Positions 12,723 through 18,967 are shown, counted from the first letter of the stretch. The stretch is DNA of 18,967 nt from Fibrobacterales bacterium (GCA_051532055.1 JAOPTX010000046.1:1-18967), one strand, 5' to 3'. Numbers: made by a program.

Positions 12723-15700
12723 CAGTTGAAGAGAGTAGTGTTTCAACGCTCTCATCAAGTATCGGTAACCAAGAACGTTCAAGTAGTGCCATTGTCGATT
12801 TAGATATAAACCCTATGATAGGGTCAACGTACCCCTCTAATACAATTGGGGAGCTTGGTGAACTGTATTCGGACACGCTCAATGGTGCTGCTTTTGTTCG
12901 GGATTACTATAAATGGCGCGTGAACAATGTTACTGACCTTATCCAACGCGGTAAGTTGATGTATCTCTATGAATTTGGTTTTTCAATTAATCAGCTTTAT
13001 GGATGGGGGGCGCAGCCTACGGACTTGATTGCACTTGAGGTAGATGCGAGTGAAGTTCTCAATTCAGATATCTCTTTAGAGATTCTAATGAATAATGGTT
13101 TTACACTAGAAAGTGCAATTGAACAAGGGATTAGTGCAGAAAAACTCATTCCAGCATCGTATAGTGTTTCTGAACTTATTGATGCTGGAATGAGTATTGA
13201 AGACTTGATTCAGGGGGAGGTGCCACTTGCAGATATATATAATTTGGGAATAGACTTAGTGTCTCTCGTAAAGGATTCAGTATCAGCCGTTCTGTTACAG
13301 AGCGCCGGCGCTCCTATGAATGAACTTATTATAACTGAGTATGCAGTTACTGAACTTAAAGAGTCGGGAGTTTCACTTGATACTCTCATTGAGGCGGGCG
13401 CTCCCTATGCCTATCTTCTCTCAGTAGGATATACTCAACAAGATCTTTCTGATGCGGGCATGATAGGAACCTTTATTGATGCACGTGATACTCAAGAGTA
13501 TCCATGGGTCAAGATAAATGGCATTTATTGGATGGCAGAAAACCTTAACTACTCTGACAATAATACCCTTGGTTATTGTTATGGCGAAGGGGACCATTCA
13601 GAAAATGAAAACTGCGCTATTTATGGAAGAATCTATGTGCATGCTGAATTGGTCAATCCACCAGCAGGTAAGGATGACATCTGCCCTGATGGATGGAATT
13701 GGGCGACCGATTATCAATACGGTCACTCATTGACACGTTCGGCATTTAAATTTAATGATAACGCTAAAGACGCATCCGATGCTTTGGGTAACTCGGATTA
13801 CTGGGAAGATGGCACAGACCTATTTGGATTTAATGGTAAACATGCGGGTGAGCGAAATATGTATGGGGACTATCAGTATAAAGGAGTCGGTCTCAGCTTT
13901 TGGTTACCTAAAGGCTATAAAGACAACCTTATCTATTCGACGTCAATGCTTCGCTCGGGTGAAAAGGGTAAAAAAAGTGGGTTTCCTATTCGTTGTACGA
14001 GACTGACCATGGAATAGTAATCCGGTATTTATCTACTTGATTCAATCAGTGTAGGTTTTGCGTGACTGGTTACTCAGCAAAGAAAATATGAAAAGGACCT
14101 GTACTGTGCAGGTTCTTTTCATAGTGGAGTGCGTTGTGTCAGAGCGGTATCTAGACAGCTTTATTTGTGTTGCTTATTGATTTATGGATTAACTATAAGC
14201 TTTATTGCGAATAAGTAGTGAGGGCCATATTTATGTTGTTGTAGATGAGGGACACTACTATGAGATGGCTAAAGAAGATGAAAGCGTCAGACTAACAGGC
14301 AAAAGTGCCAAACGAACATACAATAGTAGGTGCTGAGCTCATTTGAGAAATAACTACAGTAGAGAGGGAAGGTGACTTAACGACTCCTGAGCTACCTTTG
14401 TATAGCGGGTGGTAGTGTTTATATCACTATGACCCATCAGTTTTTGAATATAACGCAGATCAACCCCTTTTTCGAGAAGATGTGTCGCAAAGCTATGACG
14501 GAAGGTGTGAGGAGAAACAGTCTTGGTAATGGACGTTTTAGATGTGGCCTTTTTTACGATGGCGGCGATAGTTCTCGGAGAGAGCCCGCCACCTCGTTCA
14601 CTGGTAAATAAGTGATCACCGGGTTCCCGCTCACTGATCATTGAATTAATGTCACTACAGAGGCTAGGAGGGATTATGACAATTCGATCCTTTTGCCCTT
14701 TAGCGTTTTTGAGATGAATACTTCGTATTTGAAGATCTAAATCCTTGATCAGCAGGTTGCACACCTCTGAAACCCTCATACCTGTGGCATACATCAGGGA
14801 TATGGCCATATGGTGTTTGGTGTTTTTGATTTTACTTAAGATCTCTTGTACTTCTTGAGGATTGAGAACAACCGGCAGATGCTTAGTTCGACGAGGACGA
14901 TGGTGCAGTACGAAATCAAATGGTCTCTTGAGAGAGTGAATATAGAGAACTTTTAACGCTGAGATTGTGATGTTGATGGTAGAGCCTTTGTAGCGTTTTT
15001 CTTCTATTAAGTAGTGTAGGAATGCTTCGATTTTTTCGTTATCAATCTTATTAAAGGAGTAGCCCAAATAAGTGTCGAGCATTTGTAGATTACTGATATA
15101 GTTTGTGATGGTGCATTGACTATAATTTTGGCGAGTAAGTGCTTTGGTGACTGCTTTGAAATGCTTTTGGTTGATTGATTGTTCTTGTACTTCGACCGTC
15201 GGGTATATGTTATTAAAGAAGTATAAAATGATATACCGCACGTACTTTGCATCAGAATCTTTTAATTGTTCTCGAAGCTCAATATAAGTGTTCACCACAT
15301 TGATTGTGAGTTCATCTTGAGTCTCTGACCATTTAAGGAATTGCTCAATAAGTTTTGTATGATATTTAATAACGGTTTCAGTTTTATTTTGAGTTTTTAG
15401 GTATTGCTCTAGTGCGGTAAGGTAGTCTGTCATGGTGTATAGTTCCATTGAAATATAGTTAGACGCAACTCAGCATTCTTATGGGACAGTTATTTTTAAA
15501 TAGTTCCTACATCTCCGGTTTTTATAGAGAAGTAGGCAATGTCTGACATACTTTAGCGGAATATCTGGAGAAGTACGCAATACCTACTTCTTGGTGTTGT
15601 GGTGGAGAGTTGGCAGTATTGCGTACTCTTTTAGTTGAGGCTAATTACAAAGGGCAGGAAACATCGCTCAGTATAATTAAAATGTCACATTATATGATAT

Positions 15701-18700
15701 CAATGTTTATTACTATTATTATACATATAAGAAAAACACCGAGGGTATATTGTGAAGGCAGTATTTTCATATCCAACAAAATTTTGGATTGAGAACACAA
15801 GTGAAAATAAATTTGATCTTAATTCTCAATTTGCTATAAATGATATCCAGTGTTCGTTGACCTTAAAAACAAATCAGGTTTCCGATATTAAGAATGAAGA
15901 TGGTTCAATTAAATATTTTTATTGTAATTGTTATTTGTTACAAATGGAATTGCAAAAAGAAGGTGTCATATGGGAAGAATTGTCCAAAGAAAAGGTATAT
16001 TCGATAGTATATAATATGATATCTGAGGTCATAAAATATTTGAGATCAATAGGCTTAACCAAGCACATTAGGGTGCCTGTTTATAATAAAAAATATTCTG
16101 AATATTATTTAGATAAATGGGAGTTTAATTATTCAGCAGATGAGCAATTGATACCTTTAATTTCTAAATCAGGGATTATTCCTATAGGTCTTCACACTGA
16201 TACTCCAAATACTGAGTTTAATGGCGAACTAAAAGTAAATCAATGGGATGCTATAGACAATGCGCTGAAAAATCAAGACAAACCACCAATTCAAAATGAA
16301 TTTATAGTTCGTGCCTTGGAGTATTTAGAAAAAGAAGATTTAAGATCTAGCATCATAGAGGCAACTATAGCACTTGAAATTGTAGTTTCAAGTTATCTCA
16401 CTAAGCAGCTAGAAAGTAGGGAATTTGCTAATGAAAAGATTAAAAATTTCTTAAAGCCTACTCTGGATCTGCATTCAAGAGTCAGTGTGCTAATTAGCTT
16501 GTTTGCACCCAAAATTGTTCTTGATCATTTGAATTTTACTAATGTTTTGACTTGTATTAAATGGCGGAATAATATTATCCATAAAACAGGAGATTTACCT
16601 GAGGGAATAAATACTGAGGAATCAAAGGATAAAATATTTTCAATGATCTCAATGGTATTTTATTTGGATACTGCTATTGAAATGAAAACAGAAACTAAAC
16701 TAGTGGAATGAACCAAATGATGGAAGAAGAAAGAGAAAGGACTGGAGTCCAAGGTTGGAAACAGTTTTTGTCAAATAAAAAAGTTTTATTGGATCATTTT
16801 GACAGAGCAAAAGAAAAAGATCAAATTCATAAGGTACAAACATATCGAGGTGTGGTAGCTGAAGAAGAATTTAGGAAATGGTTATCAGAATTTCTTCCCA
16901 AAAAATACGCTGTTACATCTGGATATATTATATCCCAAAATGTATCTGAAGATATAAAGGCTCCACATTATGATGTAATTATTTACGATTATCTAAATTC
17001 TCCTATTTTGTGGTGTGATGATCACTCAGGGGCATCAAGTAATGGTAAATCGAGGGCTATTCCAGCCGAACATGTTATGGCTGTATTAGAAGTAAAATCA
17101 AAACTTAATTCAACAACTGTTAAAGATTCGATTAATCATTTATCTGAATTGAGCTCCTTATGCCCAACCTCGGATCAGCAAACAGATAGGTATAACAGTT
17201 ATTTACCAAGCCATTTCTTTTGTGGAATCATTTGTTATGAGTTGATTAAGCAGGATGAGTATAGCATTGCAATTTTTGAAAATATGCTTAGGGACGAAAA
17301 AGAGGTGCCCGATGGTTTTTTTGGAGTATTAATTTTAAGAGGAGAAGGGCTGCCAATAAATTGTACTGGTAAAATTGACCTTTTAGTAGGAACAACTAAT
17401 ATAAAGTGTTCAATAAAAAAAGATGAGATTTCACTTCTTAGTAAACATTCTGCAAAATTAAGTAATTCAGTAAAATACAAAAACAAGTTTATGTGTGCTA
17501 TGTTAGATTGGAATGAAGCTGTATTTTCTCAATTTGCTTTTGATTTGATTGCAAGATTGACAGGTGATTATAGGCCTGGCTATGCTTCAAGTATGCATGC
17601 GATGAACTGGGTGAAGCCTAAAAATAAAATTGATTAACTCCTACCAGAGTGAAGCAATTCATAAATATATTTAAAATATTAAAAGACTATTTAGAGATAG
17701 AATGCGATAGCCCTTTGTAACTAGCCTCAACAGCGTGAGCATGCAATTATTCCCCTAAAGATGGGAATAACTGCATACTGGCACACAAACGTTGTCACAA
17801 ATTATTTGGAGTAGAGAGGCTTTACTTTTGTAGATACTTTTTAAAGAAAAGTAATATGAGGAATTGGTTTTCTATATTTTTAAAATTATGATATAACAAA
17901 TGTAGGGATTTCGTGATTTGTAATAAATTGATTCTAATGTTAATTGCTCTAATCTGTATATGCGCCTCCATTTCATTTTCTCAAGAAGCAATTGATTCTG
18001 AATACTATAATATCGATTCAATCATTAAAAGGCAAAATCTAACCCTTACAAGTATTAAGGCAAAAACTCCTACTATTAAATGCTCAAAAAAAGAAGAGAG
18101 TAACTTTTGGATTACTGGATTAATCTTGCCATTTTTGGTTACTGTAGGAGCTTCTATGACTATTCTAATTATAAATAAAATTAATACCACCAGAGCAGAA
18201 ATTCAAAAGAAATTATATACTTTGAACTATATGATGAATGCTTGCGACAAAATTCTACACGCTGAATTAATTGTATTAAATCATACTATAAATCCTCATT
18301 TAGATGCTACACAACAGATATTGAAAGGTAATTCTGAATTGAAACATACAATGTTTGTATCTGGTGAGTTTAATATATTAACAGATAAGCCTATTAGCTT
18401 TTCTGGTATAACAGAAGAAAACAAAACACTTGTTGGGTATGACAAAATTGGTGTAATTCATTCTTATGATGTTTTAATTCACAATTTAACGAATGATAAT
18501 GATAGGATTGCATTGAATAAATTTGTTGAAAATTGTTTATCTAGTGAATTAGCCTTTGATCAATATTTACCTGAAGTACAAAAAGATTTATTGAATCAAT
18601 ATTGGGATCACCTTGATAGAATAAAACATAATTCTGAACGAAACATATTTTTTATACACTATATAATCACACGGTTTGTAATGGATTATTTGAAGGACAA

Positions 18701-18967
18701 ACAATTTAAGTCATATAAAAAAGATGAAATTTATAATACTATTCATCAAACTAAATTATTAGCTAACCAATACAAAGATCTTATACCAGATGCTGATTTC
18801 ATGGAAAAAGTGAAAAACGGTGGTATTCAAAATGCTATTTAATCCAAAGCATGTAGCGTAACTCCAAATAACTCGTGACAACAGCCGAAGCACGCAAGCT
18901 TTTTTCTATGCACTGAAGTGCAAAAAGCCTGCGTACGTTCGTCGGACTTCACCCGAAAAGTCAAGCA

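Follow-up and report, generated by a model that had tools for sequence, protein, structure and literature searches.

The window analysed here is the whole of one contig (C46; 18,967 nucleotides) from a marine Fibrobacterales genome. A tyrosine recombinase gene on its minus strand faces away from two plus-strand gene cassettes, each of which ends in an imperfect hairpin (Table 1). This arrangement had been described in a first-pass annotation, and our mapping of the open reading frame and of the sites within the window bears it out. The recombinase reading frame extends over 14354-15448 (minus strand), with an in-frame ATG at 15448 that would give a protein of 364 residues; the start at 15433 matches those of the orthologues and is the likely one. 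The attI-like junction, at 15634, lies approximately 200 nt upstream of the recombinase start.

Table 1. Features of the recombinase gene and the head of the cassette array, in window coordinates.
Feature	Position	Strand	Description
Tyrosine recombinase gene	14354..15433	-	359 aa from ATG 15433; XerA-like
attI-like region	15528..15633	+	Between recombinase start and cassette 1; inverted repeats I1 and I19, and sequence
Cassette 1	15634..17790	+	Begins GTTGAGGCTAATTACAAAGGGC; overlapping ORFs 15752-16711 (no family) and 16708-17637 (DUF6602, Pfam)
attC-like site 1	17725..17797	+	CCTCAAC, bulged hairpin, GTTGTCA
Cassette 2	17791..18947	+	Begins GTTGTCACAAATTATTTGGAGT; ORF 17913-18842 (309 aa); terminates in site 2
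attC-like site 2	18876..18947	+	TGACAAC and hairpin; covariance model 71.6 bits
IS110-family IS, left end	18948..18967	+	Between AAC and GTTG of site 2; contig ends here

The recombinase passed the NCBIfam model NF040815 (XerA/integron integrase; cut-off 220) with 230.2 bits and was matched by TIGR02249 (integron integrase) in two stretches at 183.6 bits, below the cut-off of 265; the values of 230 and 183 bits given earlier were reproduced. Positions 181-237 of the TIGR02249 profile were left unmatched, the PF00589 match covered 161 residues without insertion, and a MAFFT alignment with the genome's own IntI (encoded on C108) has a gap of approximately 38 residues at the IntI-specific insert. 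The insert near patch III (intI_Cterm, or additional domain), which belongs to the working definition of an integron used by IntegronFinder, is absent from the protein, in keeping with the lack of some 40 residues reported at first pass. This segment is considered essential for integron integrases and serves to read extrahelical bases. The full catalytic set R-K-H-R-H-Y is present, and in the alignment it is invariant in four orthologues and 57 homologues; the four orthologues, at 55-71% identity, share many further invariant residues. At 359 residues the protein is longer than the bulk of its homologues (270-290 residues) and does not match the size of a two-domain XerA. An AF2 model (pLDDT 88.7) predicts an extra N-terminal four-helix domain (residues 6-84) ahead of the usual core-binding domain. 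In an unrooted tree from a quick search, the C46 group (100*) fell inside a clade (99*) with IntI and XerA-like enzymes, away from the XerC/D-like sequences; the lineage is a small one, with only three close homologues. The enzyme passes the XerA model, and its closest PDB sequences and folds are XerA (4a8e, 5hxy). It departs from XerA and XerC/D in the added N-terminal domain and in that the genome has a separate XerC/D-type pair (C35, C44b), by which dimer resolution is covered. Each replicon has a single dif site, at which Xer enzymes act or into which they integrate whole elements; they are not known to build multi-cassette arrays like those seen here.

The attI-like region contains the motif GAAGTAsGCAA twice in direct (15529-15539, 15570-15580) and twice in inverted orientation (15578-15591, 15617-15630); the final copy, followed by TTTTA, directly adjoins the first GTTG. 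Exact matches in the window number three, of which two are the direct copies and the third lies in the 5' arm of site 2, the pattern having been derived from those copies. Each cassette begins with a segment that is complementary to one near its own end: 15634-15655 to 17710-17731 in cassette 1 (22 nt, 95%; repeat I1), and 17791-17812 to 18861-18882 in cassette 2 (22 nt, 91%; repeat I5). The GC content of cassette 1 is 30-33%, compared to 40-44% in the left flank. Site 1, the first row of our alignment A1, scored 58.3 bits with nhmmer and 69.6 bits with the covariance model, with fold energies of -13.0 kcal/mol for the top and -16.8 kcal/mol for the bottom strand. Its right box and the adjoining flank are part of cassette 2, whose reading frame has no family match in Pfam or NCBIfam. 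At site 2 the right GTTG box has been displaced by an insertion, such that GGAC is followed by TTCACCC where other sites show GTTG. No T-run terminators were found near the array head.

An nhmmer search from eight seeds gave 31 matches at E<1e-3; with the covariance model R1 the genome likewise yielded 31, on 14 contigs. Long-loop or divergent copies beyond these, missed or half-matched by the models, lie at C100:6861-7046, C100:10042-10112, C89:7852-8037 and C45:7738-7929 and on C122 and C141. The earlier tally of 33 sites on 14 contigs stands as regards the contigs, which are the same; the number of sites is 31 by R1, with the divergent copies in addition. The context of 35 sites was in line with the earlier statement that most follow a gene of the same strand: 30 follow a same-strand reading frame, one follows a frame on the opposite strand, two have none, and two are at a contig start. 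At least eight touch a contig end, as had been counted before. Strand is uniform within each contig (plus on most, minus on C3, C116 and C153), with each site placed after its cassette reading frame.

Each site folds into an imperfect hairpin that bears AAC and GTT boxes, and conservation among the sites lies in this structure and not in the sequence. The core has a box-to-box length of 69-80 nt (consensus xxxCAAC...GTTGxxx) and not the approximately 95 nt first given. The outer boxes CTACAAC/GTTGTAG of that description do occur, as one of several cassette-specific variants; the conserved part is CAAC/GTTG only, and the boxes in the window (Table 1) are different again. In each site CAAC/GTTG forms a short R stem; besides an asymmetric spacer there are two covarying stems, both short, and a terminal stem that varies, and an invariant A.C mismatch corresponds to a T.G wobble on the other strand. 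Across the 27 sites of alignment A1, 87.8% of the cells were paired, compared to 33-39% in slid controls. Compensatory change was found in 11 of 23 pairs, altered on both sides (72 cells), an extent reached by none of 500 shuffles. The bottom (non-coding) strand was the more stable in 26 of the 27 sites (mean -16.3 versus -12.1 kcal/mol), which confirms the earlier observation on strand stability, and the plus-strand 3' arm, the AAC arm of the bottom strand, was longer by 2-5 nt in all 27. The fold of the bottom strand is under selection, and the strand bias is at odds with an element that acts as RNA in transcripts of the cassettes. No relevant match to the sites came from the Rfam scan, as at first pass, and R1 had no match among 18 other loci, in keeping with a short site type of the lineage's own.

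The array also carries footprints of cassette movement. The segments C89:8028-8380 and C100:10105-10457 are 98.9% identical over 353 bp and represent the same cassette in two arrays. The hairpins upstream of the two copies differ, as does the DNA past GTTG; the unit is bounded by ACGTTG...GTTG, with its end exactly at the right-hand GTTG box. Cassette boundaries thus fall in the right-hand GTTG box, and each array site is a chimera of two cassettes. The cargo is diverse and low in GC, with reading frames of 93-1163 residues, some cassettes with two genes, and one ParE toxin cassette. Contigs of one run, probably of the source sample, contained no reliable excision joint: as in the first-pass annotation, candidate joints had fewer than 30 nt on one side, or they were explained by repeat similarity. 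The left end of an IS110-family element adjoins five of the attC-like sites (on C46, C72, C122, C141 and C153), and a 434-residue reading frame on C122 contains DEDD_Tnp_IS110 and Transposase_20. The six right ends (five of the IS and one remnant) are followed by GTTG in four cases, by GCTG in one and by ATTG in one, in each instance leading into a cassette flank. Most array fragments are on contigs without any recombinase; the array was probably split up during assembly, owing to its repeated sites and to the copies of the IS110-family element, which inserts at AAC^GTTG.

The sister species encodes an orthologue of the recombinase (56% identity), and 1.4 kb from it, on the opposite strand, lies a site, as had been noted. 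A GTTG box and cassette flank occur there as far from the gene start as they do in C46, so that the junction, which in C46 has the repeated GAAGTAsGCAA motifs, is conserved in position. The left flank is syntenic between the two species, while cassette content differs, including next to the attI-like junction. Among 151 Fibrobacterales genomes searched with R1, matches were confined to these two, which are those with the recombinase orthologue; a restriction to this pair had already been reported from BLAST. Both belong to one genus, and the co-occurrence of site and orthologue accordingly counts as one event.

Relatives of the recombinase that lack the insert were examined at 80 loci. Fifteen Bacteroidota loci have 3 kb or more of downstream sequence, and ten of them hold at least two cassette pairs in it; cassette pairs at the Bacteroidota loci number 50 downstream versus 8 upstream; the chains at insert-less loci begin 40-130 nt past the stop codon. 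The cassette-pair statistic, as applied to other phyla, has a real background, with 124 pairs observed compared to 40 with swapped words and 59 in reversed sequence. No canonical IntI (TIGR02249 above cut-off) was found in any of six Bacteroidota genomes with such arrays. In Planctomycetota both systems are present, each with its own site type. The attC type beside the insert-less enzyme of Novipirellula is 88-92% conserved in two other genera, and BLAST gave no hit to it in the array of the canonical IntI. Insert-less relatives that head integron-type arrays in other phyla lend independent support to the integron reading.

The comparison with sedentary chromosomal integrons (for example the Vibrio superintegron; VchIntIA, 2a3v) reveals likeness in a divergent recombinase gene with an adjoining putative insertion site, co-oriented cassettes each terminated by an imperfect hairpin that bears AAC and GTT boxes, chimeric sites whose boundary falls in the right-hand box, a folding bias toward the bottom strand, diverse low-GC cargo, and a recombinase of the same 99* clade as IntI. 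The C46 system differs in the missing insert (some 35-38 residues), the predicted extra N-terminal helical domain, cassette start-to-end complementarity of approximately 22 nt instead of 7, and larger cassettes (judged by the reading frames given above). In the bottom strand its unpaired bases occupy the AAC (R') arm, whereas Nivina 2016 places the extrahelical bases of classical attC on the R''/L'' arm. Like attC arrays that have no neighbouring integrase of the IntI profile, the C46-type sites are without such an enzyme; unlike them, the C46 array is headed by a conserved tyrosine recombinase and an attI-like junction. The pdif modules of Acinetobacter plasmids are gene modules bounded by 28-bp duplex XerC/XerD sites of alternating orientation. 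The C46 cassettes are likewise discrete modules bounded by (putative) Xer-type recombinase sites, but the 69-80-nt hairpins, their single orientation per contig and the integron-type chimeric boundaries differ, and in hairpin length and strand the array does not fit modules of the pdif kind.

Judged from sequence, C46 probably carries the head of an integron-like platform for gene capture on the chromosome, its array driven by a XerA-like integrase that lacks the IntI insert. The first-pass annotation had also seen a chromosomal-integron layout with a Xer-like recombinase, and that view is supported by the conservation of the fold, the complementarity of cassette starts and ends, the duplicated cassette and the missing insert. 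We consider it unlikely that the canonical IntI of C108 instead moves the cassettes in trans, which would make the array a CALIN-like cluster and the Xer-like recombinase a bystander or an enzyme with another role. Both this genome and the sister species do encode a canonical IntI above the TIGR02249 cut-off (372.6 and 286.8 bits, respectively), and IntI is tolerant of varied attC sequences according to Cury 2016. However, the C108 enzyme adjoins a different attC type of approximately 120 nt (18 nhmmer hits). The contig sets of the two types are disjoint except for the 262-kb C3, where they lie 92 kb apart, and no array is shared. This weakens the earlier caveat that the C108 enzyme may act on C46-type sites, although some doubt remains. 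The layout of recombinase, attI-like junction and cassettes is moreover kept in the sister species, the Bacteroidota arrays of like layout do without a canonical IntI in the six genomes, the two Novipirellula systems keep separate site types, and the extra bases are not on the arm read by IntI but on the opposite one (the classical arm as given in Nivina 2016).

It is likewise improbable that the array is a relic whose cassettes were gathered earlier and can no longer move, with a recombinase that serves, for example, a second dimer resolution or the integration of another element. The want of excision joints in the contigs of one run, the IS insertions that disrupt at least five sites, and the long, in part two-gene cassettes (reading frames of up to 1163 residues) agree with such a history. 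The retention of every catalytic residue and of many invariant positions in the four orthologues speaks against it, as do the compensatory changes that maintain the site fold, the near-identical cassette in two contexts, and the different cassettes that the sister species has beside the attI-like junction. A further reading takes the hairpins for miniature transposon ends, REP-like repeats or transcription terminators which chance to follow genes; it would account for palindromes just past stop codons and for the lack of an Rfam match. We hold it to be very improbable in view of the 22-nt complementarity between the start of a unit and its own end, the duplicated unit bounded exactly at GTTG, the better fold of the non-transcribed strand in 26 of 27 sites, the lack of T-run terminators near the array head, and the presence of the sites, among the genomes searched, only in those with the recombinase orthologue.

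If the insert-less recombinase is the driver of the array, it would bind the folded bottom strand of a cassette site and exchange a single strand near AAC|GTTG, the partner being either the attI-like site or a further cassette site. Replication would then resolve the product, as in integrons and in the XerCD-mediated integration of folded single-stranded phage DNA. The integration of CTX phage DNA by XerCD, as described in Nivina 2016, shows that insert-free enzymes can work on folded single strands. The C46 enzyme would have to read its sites differently from IntI, because it lacks the insert with which IntI reads extrahelical bases; this fits both the position of the extra bases, across from the arm that carries them in classical attC, and the extra N-terminal four-helix domain. 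With these bases on the opposite arm, the classical mechanism is not simply transferable.

We found no description of such a system in the literature. In complete genomes, recombinases near attC without the IntI-specific domain were judged not to be IntI by Cury 2016. It may be, on a tentative reading that is far from remote, that XerA-like recombinases without the insert constitute a widespread and unrecognised class of integron integrases in Fibrobacterota, Bacteroidota and Planctomycetota, each lineage with its own attC type and with unpaired bases on the opposite arm, and that classical IntI is the branch that gained the insert. If so, cassette capture would be older than the insert and independent of it, the working definition of the integron would be overturned, and many "CALINs" and "integron-free" phyla would be reclassified. 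The array beside an insert-less recombinase suggests that gene capture of the integron kind is wider than current detection rules allow.

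At the GC transition of this contig (18,967 bp of a 5.17-Mb Fibrobacterales assembly in 181 contigs; ordinary chromosomal genes at 38–44% GC up to ~14.3 kb, 28–34% GC from 15.0 kb on) lies the open reading frame of a tyrosine recombinase. The start of three orthologues aligns with the ATG at 15433, and the gene therefore probably spans 14354–15433 and encodes 359 aa. Its product has, in Pfam, a single SAM-like core-binding domain and a single Phage_integrase domain, the latter of normal length. It scores 230.2 bits against the NCBIfam profile NF040815 (XerA type, "site-specific tyrosine recombinase/integron integrase"; cut-off 220) and 183.6 bits, in two stretches, against the integron-integrase profile TIGR02249, below the cut-off of 265. 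In the six-frame genome search, TIGR02249 positions 181–237 had no match in the recombinase. We aligned it with four further proteins of the genome, namely the canonical IntI of contig C108, a divergent IntI-like protein of C44 and the XerC/D-type proteins of C35 and C44. A gap of ~38 residues falls exactly at the IntI-specific insert of both IntI-type proteins, and none of the catalytic residues (R, K, H, R, H, Y) is missing. The closest solved sequences are archaeal XerA (4a8e, 5hxy), ahead of VchIntIA (2a3v, two stretches) and XerD, and a Foldseek search with the AlphaFold model (57 sequences, mean pLDDT 88.7) again ranked XerA and 2a3v at the top. The recombinase is thus XerA-like and devoid of the insert. 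The model also contains a confident four-helix domain (residues 6–84) that precedes the core-binding domain; the idea that it duplicates the latter found no backing at the sequence level (BLASTP of half against half, E = 14). The gap between a FISUMP-domain gene and the 3' terminus of the recombinase gene contains an inverted repeat, terminator-like in appearance, with arms of 18 nt around a single-nucleotide loop.

Coordinates of the features discussed (positions without a contig name are those of the window, contig C46)
Feature	Position	Strand	Remark
FISUMP-domain gene	12263-14017		
Terminator-like inverted repeat	14087-14123		
Recombinase ORF	14354-15448	minus	at GC transition
GAAGTAsGCAA, direct copies	15529, 15570		two copies; from repeats in the sequence
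GAAGTAsGCAA, inverted copies	15578-15591, 15617-15630		two copies, the last abutting TTTTA-GTTG; from repeats in the sequence
Inverted repeat I1	15634-15655, 17710-17731		
Sizeable ORFs right of the recombinase	15752-16711, 16708-17637, 17913-18842	plus	ORF call
Site 1 (attC-like hairpin)	17725-17797		
Inverted repeat I5	17791-17812, 18861-18882		
Site 2 (attC-like hairpin)	18876-18947	plus	right GTTG displaced
Duplicated ORF-less cassette	C89:8028-8380, C100:10105-10457		353 bp
Long-loop sites	C100:6861-7046, C89:7852-8037, C45:7738-7929, C122:1-87, C141		
Tandem repeats in a cassette ORF	C100:9249-9970		
IS110-family element	C122:88-1883		
Element right ends	C75:1-54, C89, C136, C33, C47:68757-68810		
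Canonical IntI	C108:7906-9270	minus	454 aa, long N-terminal extension; TIGR02249 positions 2-313, 372.6 bits
Canonical integron (locus L012)	C108:7906-10767		
Divergent IntI-like gene	C44:9974-11188 (locus L034, 4975-6189)		405 aa
Its counterpart in the sister species G156	C36:137226-138104		

With the site 1 hairpin as the start, BLAST followed by nhmmer from eight seeds gave 31 attC-like sites at E<1e-3. The 27 complete sites (26 of this genome, one of the sister species) were aligned, and a structure was written from their pattern. Outermost is a 4-bp R stem that pairs CAAC with GTTG, separated by an asymmetric spacer from a second stem of 4 bp. Further inward come an internal loop, another 4-bp stem, an A.C mismatch and a 7-bp variable stem, with a terminal GCAC/GTGC stem in most copies. 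The outer stems were read by eye from the alignment and then tested by pair counts. Standard pairs fill 87.8% of the cells on the written structure, compared to 33–39% when the partners are slid by 1–3 columns. Changes on both sides occur in 11 of the 23 pairs (72 cells), and the observed covariation was reached by none of 500 shuffles. RNAalifold by itself recovered the inner stem only (11 pairs, eight with compensatory change). A covariance model of these sites (R1) returned 31 matches in the genome and 15 in the sister species; the 31 fall on exactly the 14 contigs that the first-pass annotation had listed for the family. The total is at least 37 when divergent copies and copies with a 110-nt longer loop are included. 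In this long-loop subtype, whose copies are 90–92% identical, the usual arms surround a conserved insert of ~110 nt with internal hairpins of its own. With DNA parameters, the bottom strand (the complement of the cassette coding strand) was the more stable in 26 of the 27 sites, which are related and not 27 independent trials (mean –16.3 vs –12.1 kcal/mol), in part because the invariant A.C mismatch becomes a T.G wobble on that strand. This points to a fold selected on the non-transcribed strand, that is, to a DNA substrate and not RNA.

The arrangement of the units bears on how they move. I1 matches the 22 nt that follow the first GTTG with their reverse complement, a stretch that closes with the CAAC of site 1. 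I5 does so for the 22 nt that follow the site 1 GTTG, the reverse complement here closing with the CAAC of site 2. Each unit therefore starts and ends with complementary sequence, and every site in the array combines boxes from different units. Unit-end complementarity with chimeric sites is the integron signature, and the remaining array contigs show it throughout. The duplicated ORF-less cassette is 98.9% identical in its two copies, with two different hairpins before it and different DNA after it; the shared stretch runs from the ACGTTG of the preceding site to the GTTG of its own. The hairpin therefore moves with the DNA on its left, and crossover occurs, as in integrons, within the right-hand box. 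Polarity is consistent as well: 30 of 35 sites directly follow an ORF of the same strand and one an ORF of the opposite strand, the remainder belonging to ORF-less units (two) or contig starts (two). The sole public run, labeled marine metagenome and probably the source sample, was available as contigs and yielded four joints, which speak neither for nor against excision. In the joint of 15659 to 17705 the shorter side measures 26 nt, and likeness between sites accounts for two others (17732 to 18888, 17732 to 18901). Both the array and the integron-type logic behind it are real.

The first GTTG (15634) is ~200 nt from the start of the recombinase gene, and to its left no standard site is present, the CAAC box being absent. 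The element GAAGTAsGCAA recurs here in direct and inverted copies, and this 11-mer also makes up the 5' arm of site 2 (18887); its exact matches in the window are three, the two direct copies and this one, and the pattern itself was derived from them. Conservation in the sister species does not extend to the sequence on the left of the junction, but a GTTG with a cassette flank behind it occupies the same aligned position. We read the junction at 15634 as an attI-like site. A sigma-70 promoter scan of this region gave one site against 1.9 expected, such a scan being uninformative for the phylum.

Site 2 ends in ...GGAC and continues with TTCACCCGAAAAG... in place of GTTG, 20 nt before the contig end (18948–18967). 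This TTCACCCGAAAAG end adjoins five attC-like sites (on C46, C72, C122, C141 and C153) and belongs to an element with a 434-aa ORF of the DEDD_Tnp_IS110 and Transposase_20 families. For the interruption, a group II intron (its 3' end) was considered and rejected, as Rfam gave no intron match and the ORF encodes a transposase of the IS110 family. The opposite end (...ATAGAGAAC) is present in six copies, including a remnant, and is followed by GTTG (four), GCTG (one) or ATTG (one). At all six the four-base box leads into cassette flank, several lie at contig starts, and the end itself (...GAAC) restores an AAC-GTTG junction. Element ends that abut sites, with GTTG beyond, thus place the insertion between AAC and GTTG of at least five attC-like sites. 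An IS1111 subgroup reportedly targets classical attC sites. At least eight sites are found at contig ends because element copies and repeated sites broke the assembly. A right-end remnant of ~60 nt is present upstream of a cassette on C47.

The real driver of the C46-type array could be the canonical IntI, given that both enzymes are present in this genome and in the sister species. The canonical gene heads its own integron, in which small plus-strand cassettes (ORFs of 84–113 aa) follow IntI, each ORF ending in a ~120-nt palindrome with ATAAC...GTTAT boxes (attC). A profile of two ~120-nt copies found 18 such sites on eight contigs (C3 at 227 kb, C30, C31, C32, C74, C108, C130 and C157). The two site types share no contig except the 262-kb C3, where they are 92 kb apart, so the families are kept separate, each adjoining its own recombinase. 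This separation weakens the case for the canonical IntI. The divergent gene of C44 carries an insert where IntI has one, reads LGQ instead of LGH at that motif, sits on a very long tree branch and is kept in the sister species. Cassette pairs, defined as GTT+X...rc(X)+AAC with 14-mers and at most one mismatch, were absent from the 11 kb around it. The best-supported reading is that the insert-less recombinase next to the array is its cognate integrase, and we consider this probable.

The sister species carries an orthologue of 56% identity in the same divergent layout, with a syntenic left flank and a different cassette content; the DNA to the right of its cassette matches contigs C13 and C75 of the present genome. 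R1 sites were found in two of 151 Fibrobacterales genomes and a close orthologue, by protein search, in two of 157 (other matches had E values of 1e-42 or weaker), the same two genomes in each case. This co-occurrence is one phylogenetic event and not many. Among public genomes (one per species), a profile search with a four-protein alignment returned nothing above 44% identity, and the protein collection contained only three close homologues, on contigs of 2.9, 5.8 and 54 kb. R1 had no match in 18 loci from other phyla, and the site type is accordingly lineage-specific in sequence.

That profile search yielded 80 loci with recombinases of 31–44% identity, and the insert was absent from all ten that were aligned. 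Several have regular arrays of 120–200-nt repeats beside the recombinase gene, with ...AAC and GTT... boxes and complementarity between consecutive sites. The 80 loci hold 124 cassette pairs, with three or more in 17 loci, against 40 with swapped words and 59 on reversed sequence, a background that is not negligible. The cassette chains themselves are unambiguous. In Maribacter (L050) five consecutive cassettes begin 72 nt past the stop codon; like chains are seen in L036, L049, L060, L063, L065 and L070, and in L036, L060 and L065 the cassette ORFs run in the same direction as the recombinase. Where Bacteroidota loci extend at least 3 kb downstream, 10 of 15 have two or more pairs there (50 pairs downstream vs eight upstream). 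A further 14 of the 37 Bacteroidota contigs stop within 800 bp downstream of the gene (L037, L041, L043, L044, L052, L068, L088, L089 and others), as would be expected if repeat arrays break assemblies. None of six array-bearing Bacteroidota genomes exceeded the TIGR02249 cut-off, and their best matches all lacked positions ~181–237. The flavobacterial sites resemble the C46 type in starting with ...AAC-AG, in ending with RAAC-GTT and in leaving a stretch of the bottom-strand AAC arm unpaired.

Both kinds of enzyme occur in four genomes of Planctomycetota. Novipirellula herctigrandis has a canonical IntI with a separate array at 1.25 Mb and an insert-less enzyme at 3.90 Mb; the site type of the latter had no BLAST match in the array of the former. 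This ~135-nt site type (L069) recurs at 88–92% identity in Aureliella (L072) and Rhodopirellula (L092), again beside an insert-less enzyme. The recombinases of these three loci have long N- and C-terminal extensions (456–554 aa). In a quick IQ-TREE analysis of 96 recombinase cores, with the root not inferred, a clade with support of 99 comprised the 15 IntI rows (99), the C46 group (100), the XerA-like proteins of Patescibacteria, the Bacteroidota group and a Planctomycetota/Myxococcota group (100). The XerC/D-like rows lie outside this clade, and IntI is weakly joined to the Planctomycetota group (81).

The IntI insert reportedly contacts extrahelical bases of its site. In all 27 C46-type sites the plus-strand 3' arm is 2–5 nt longer than the 5' arm, so that the unpaired bases of the bottom strand sit on the AAC arm itself. 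For classical attC, passages of Nivina 2016 place AAC of the recombined bottom strand in R' and the extrahelical bases near L'', on the other arm. The extrahelical bases of classical sites are hence opposite the AAC arm, whereas the unpaired bases of C46-type sites are on it. An insert-less enzyme with sites of mirrored asymmetry makes an at least coherent pairing.

The cargo on the other array contigs has a Pfam family in 14 of 29 cassette ORFs. Surface or secreted repeat proteins (FISUMP, PKD, NosD-like, LRR) are accompanied by a PF00144 serine hydrolase, CotH, FGE-sulfatase, MCP signaling, M19 dipeptidase, KAP NTPase, DJ-1/PfpI and a ParE toxin. One of the three window ORFs has a family, DUF6602. 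Within a 933-aa PKD-domain cassette ORF on C100, tandem repeats of ~150 bp are 92–94% identical.

Full-text literature searching turned up no account of cassette arrays run by an insert-less enzyme; the supplementary trees of Cury 2016, Smyshlyaev 2021 and Néron 2022 may bear on this. Passages of Cury 2016 report 50 insert-less recombinases near attC in complete genomes and conclude that they are not IntI. The relevant text of Smyshlyaev 2021 calls the insertion "not fully conserved" in an integron-like subgroup, and a section of Néron 2022 (IntegronFinder 2.0) gives one complete integron in Bacteroidetes.

The IntI insert is held to be necessary for integron recombination and serves as the criterion for the detection of integrons in genomes. 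If an insert-less enzyme runs the array, gene-capture platforms would be undercounted, notably in Bacteroidota. Recognition of a folded DNA site would then be achievable in another way, and the step from Xer to IntI would be open to study in living intermediates. As this genome combines the two systems and each uses a separate site type, it is a natural test bed for cross-specificity.
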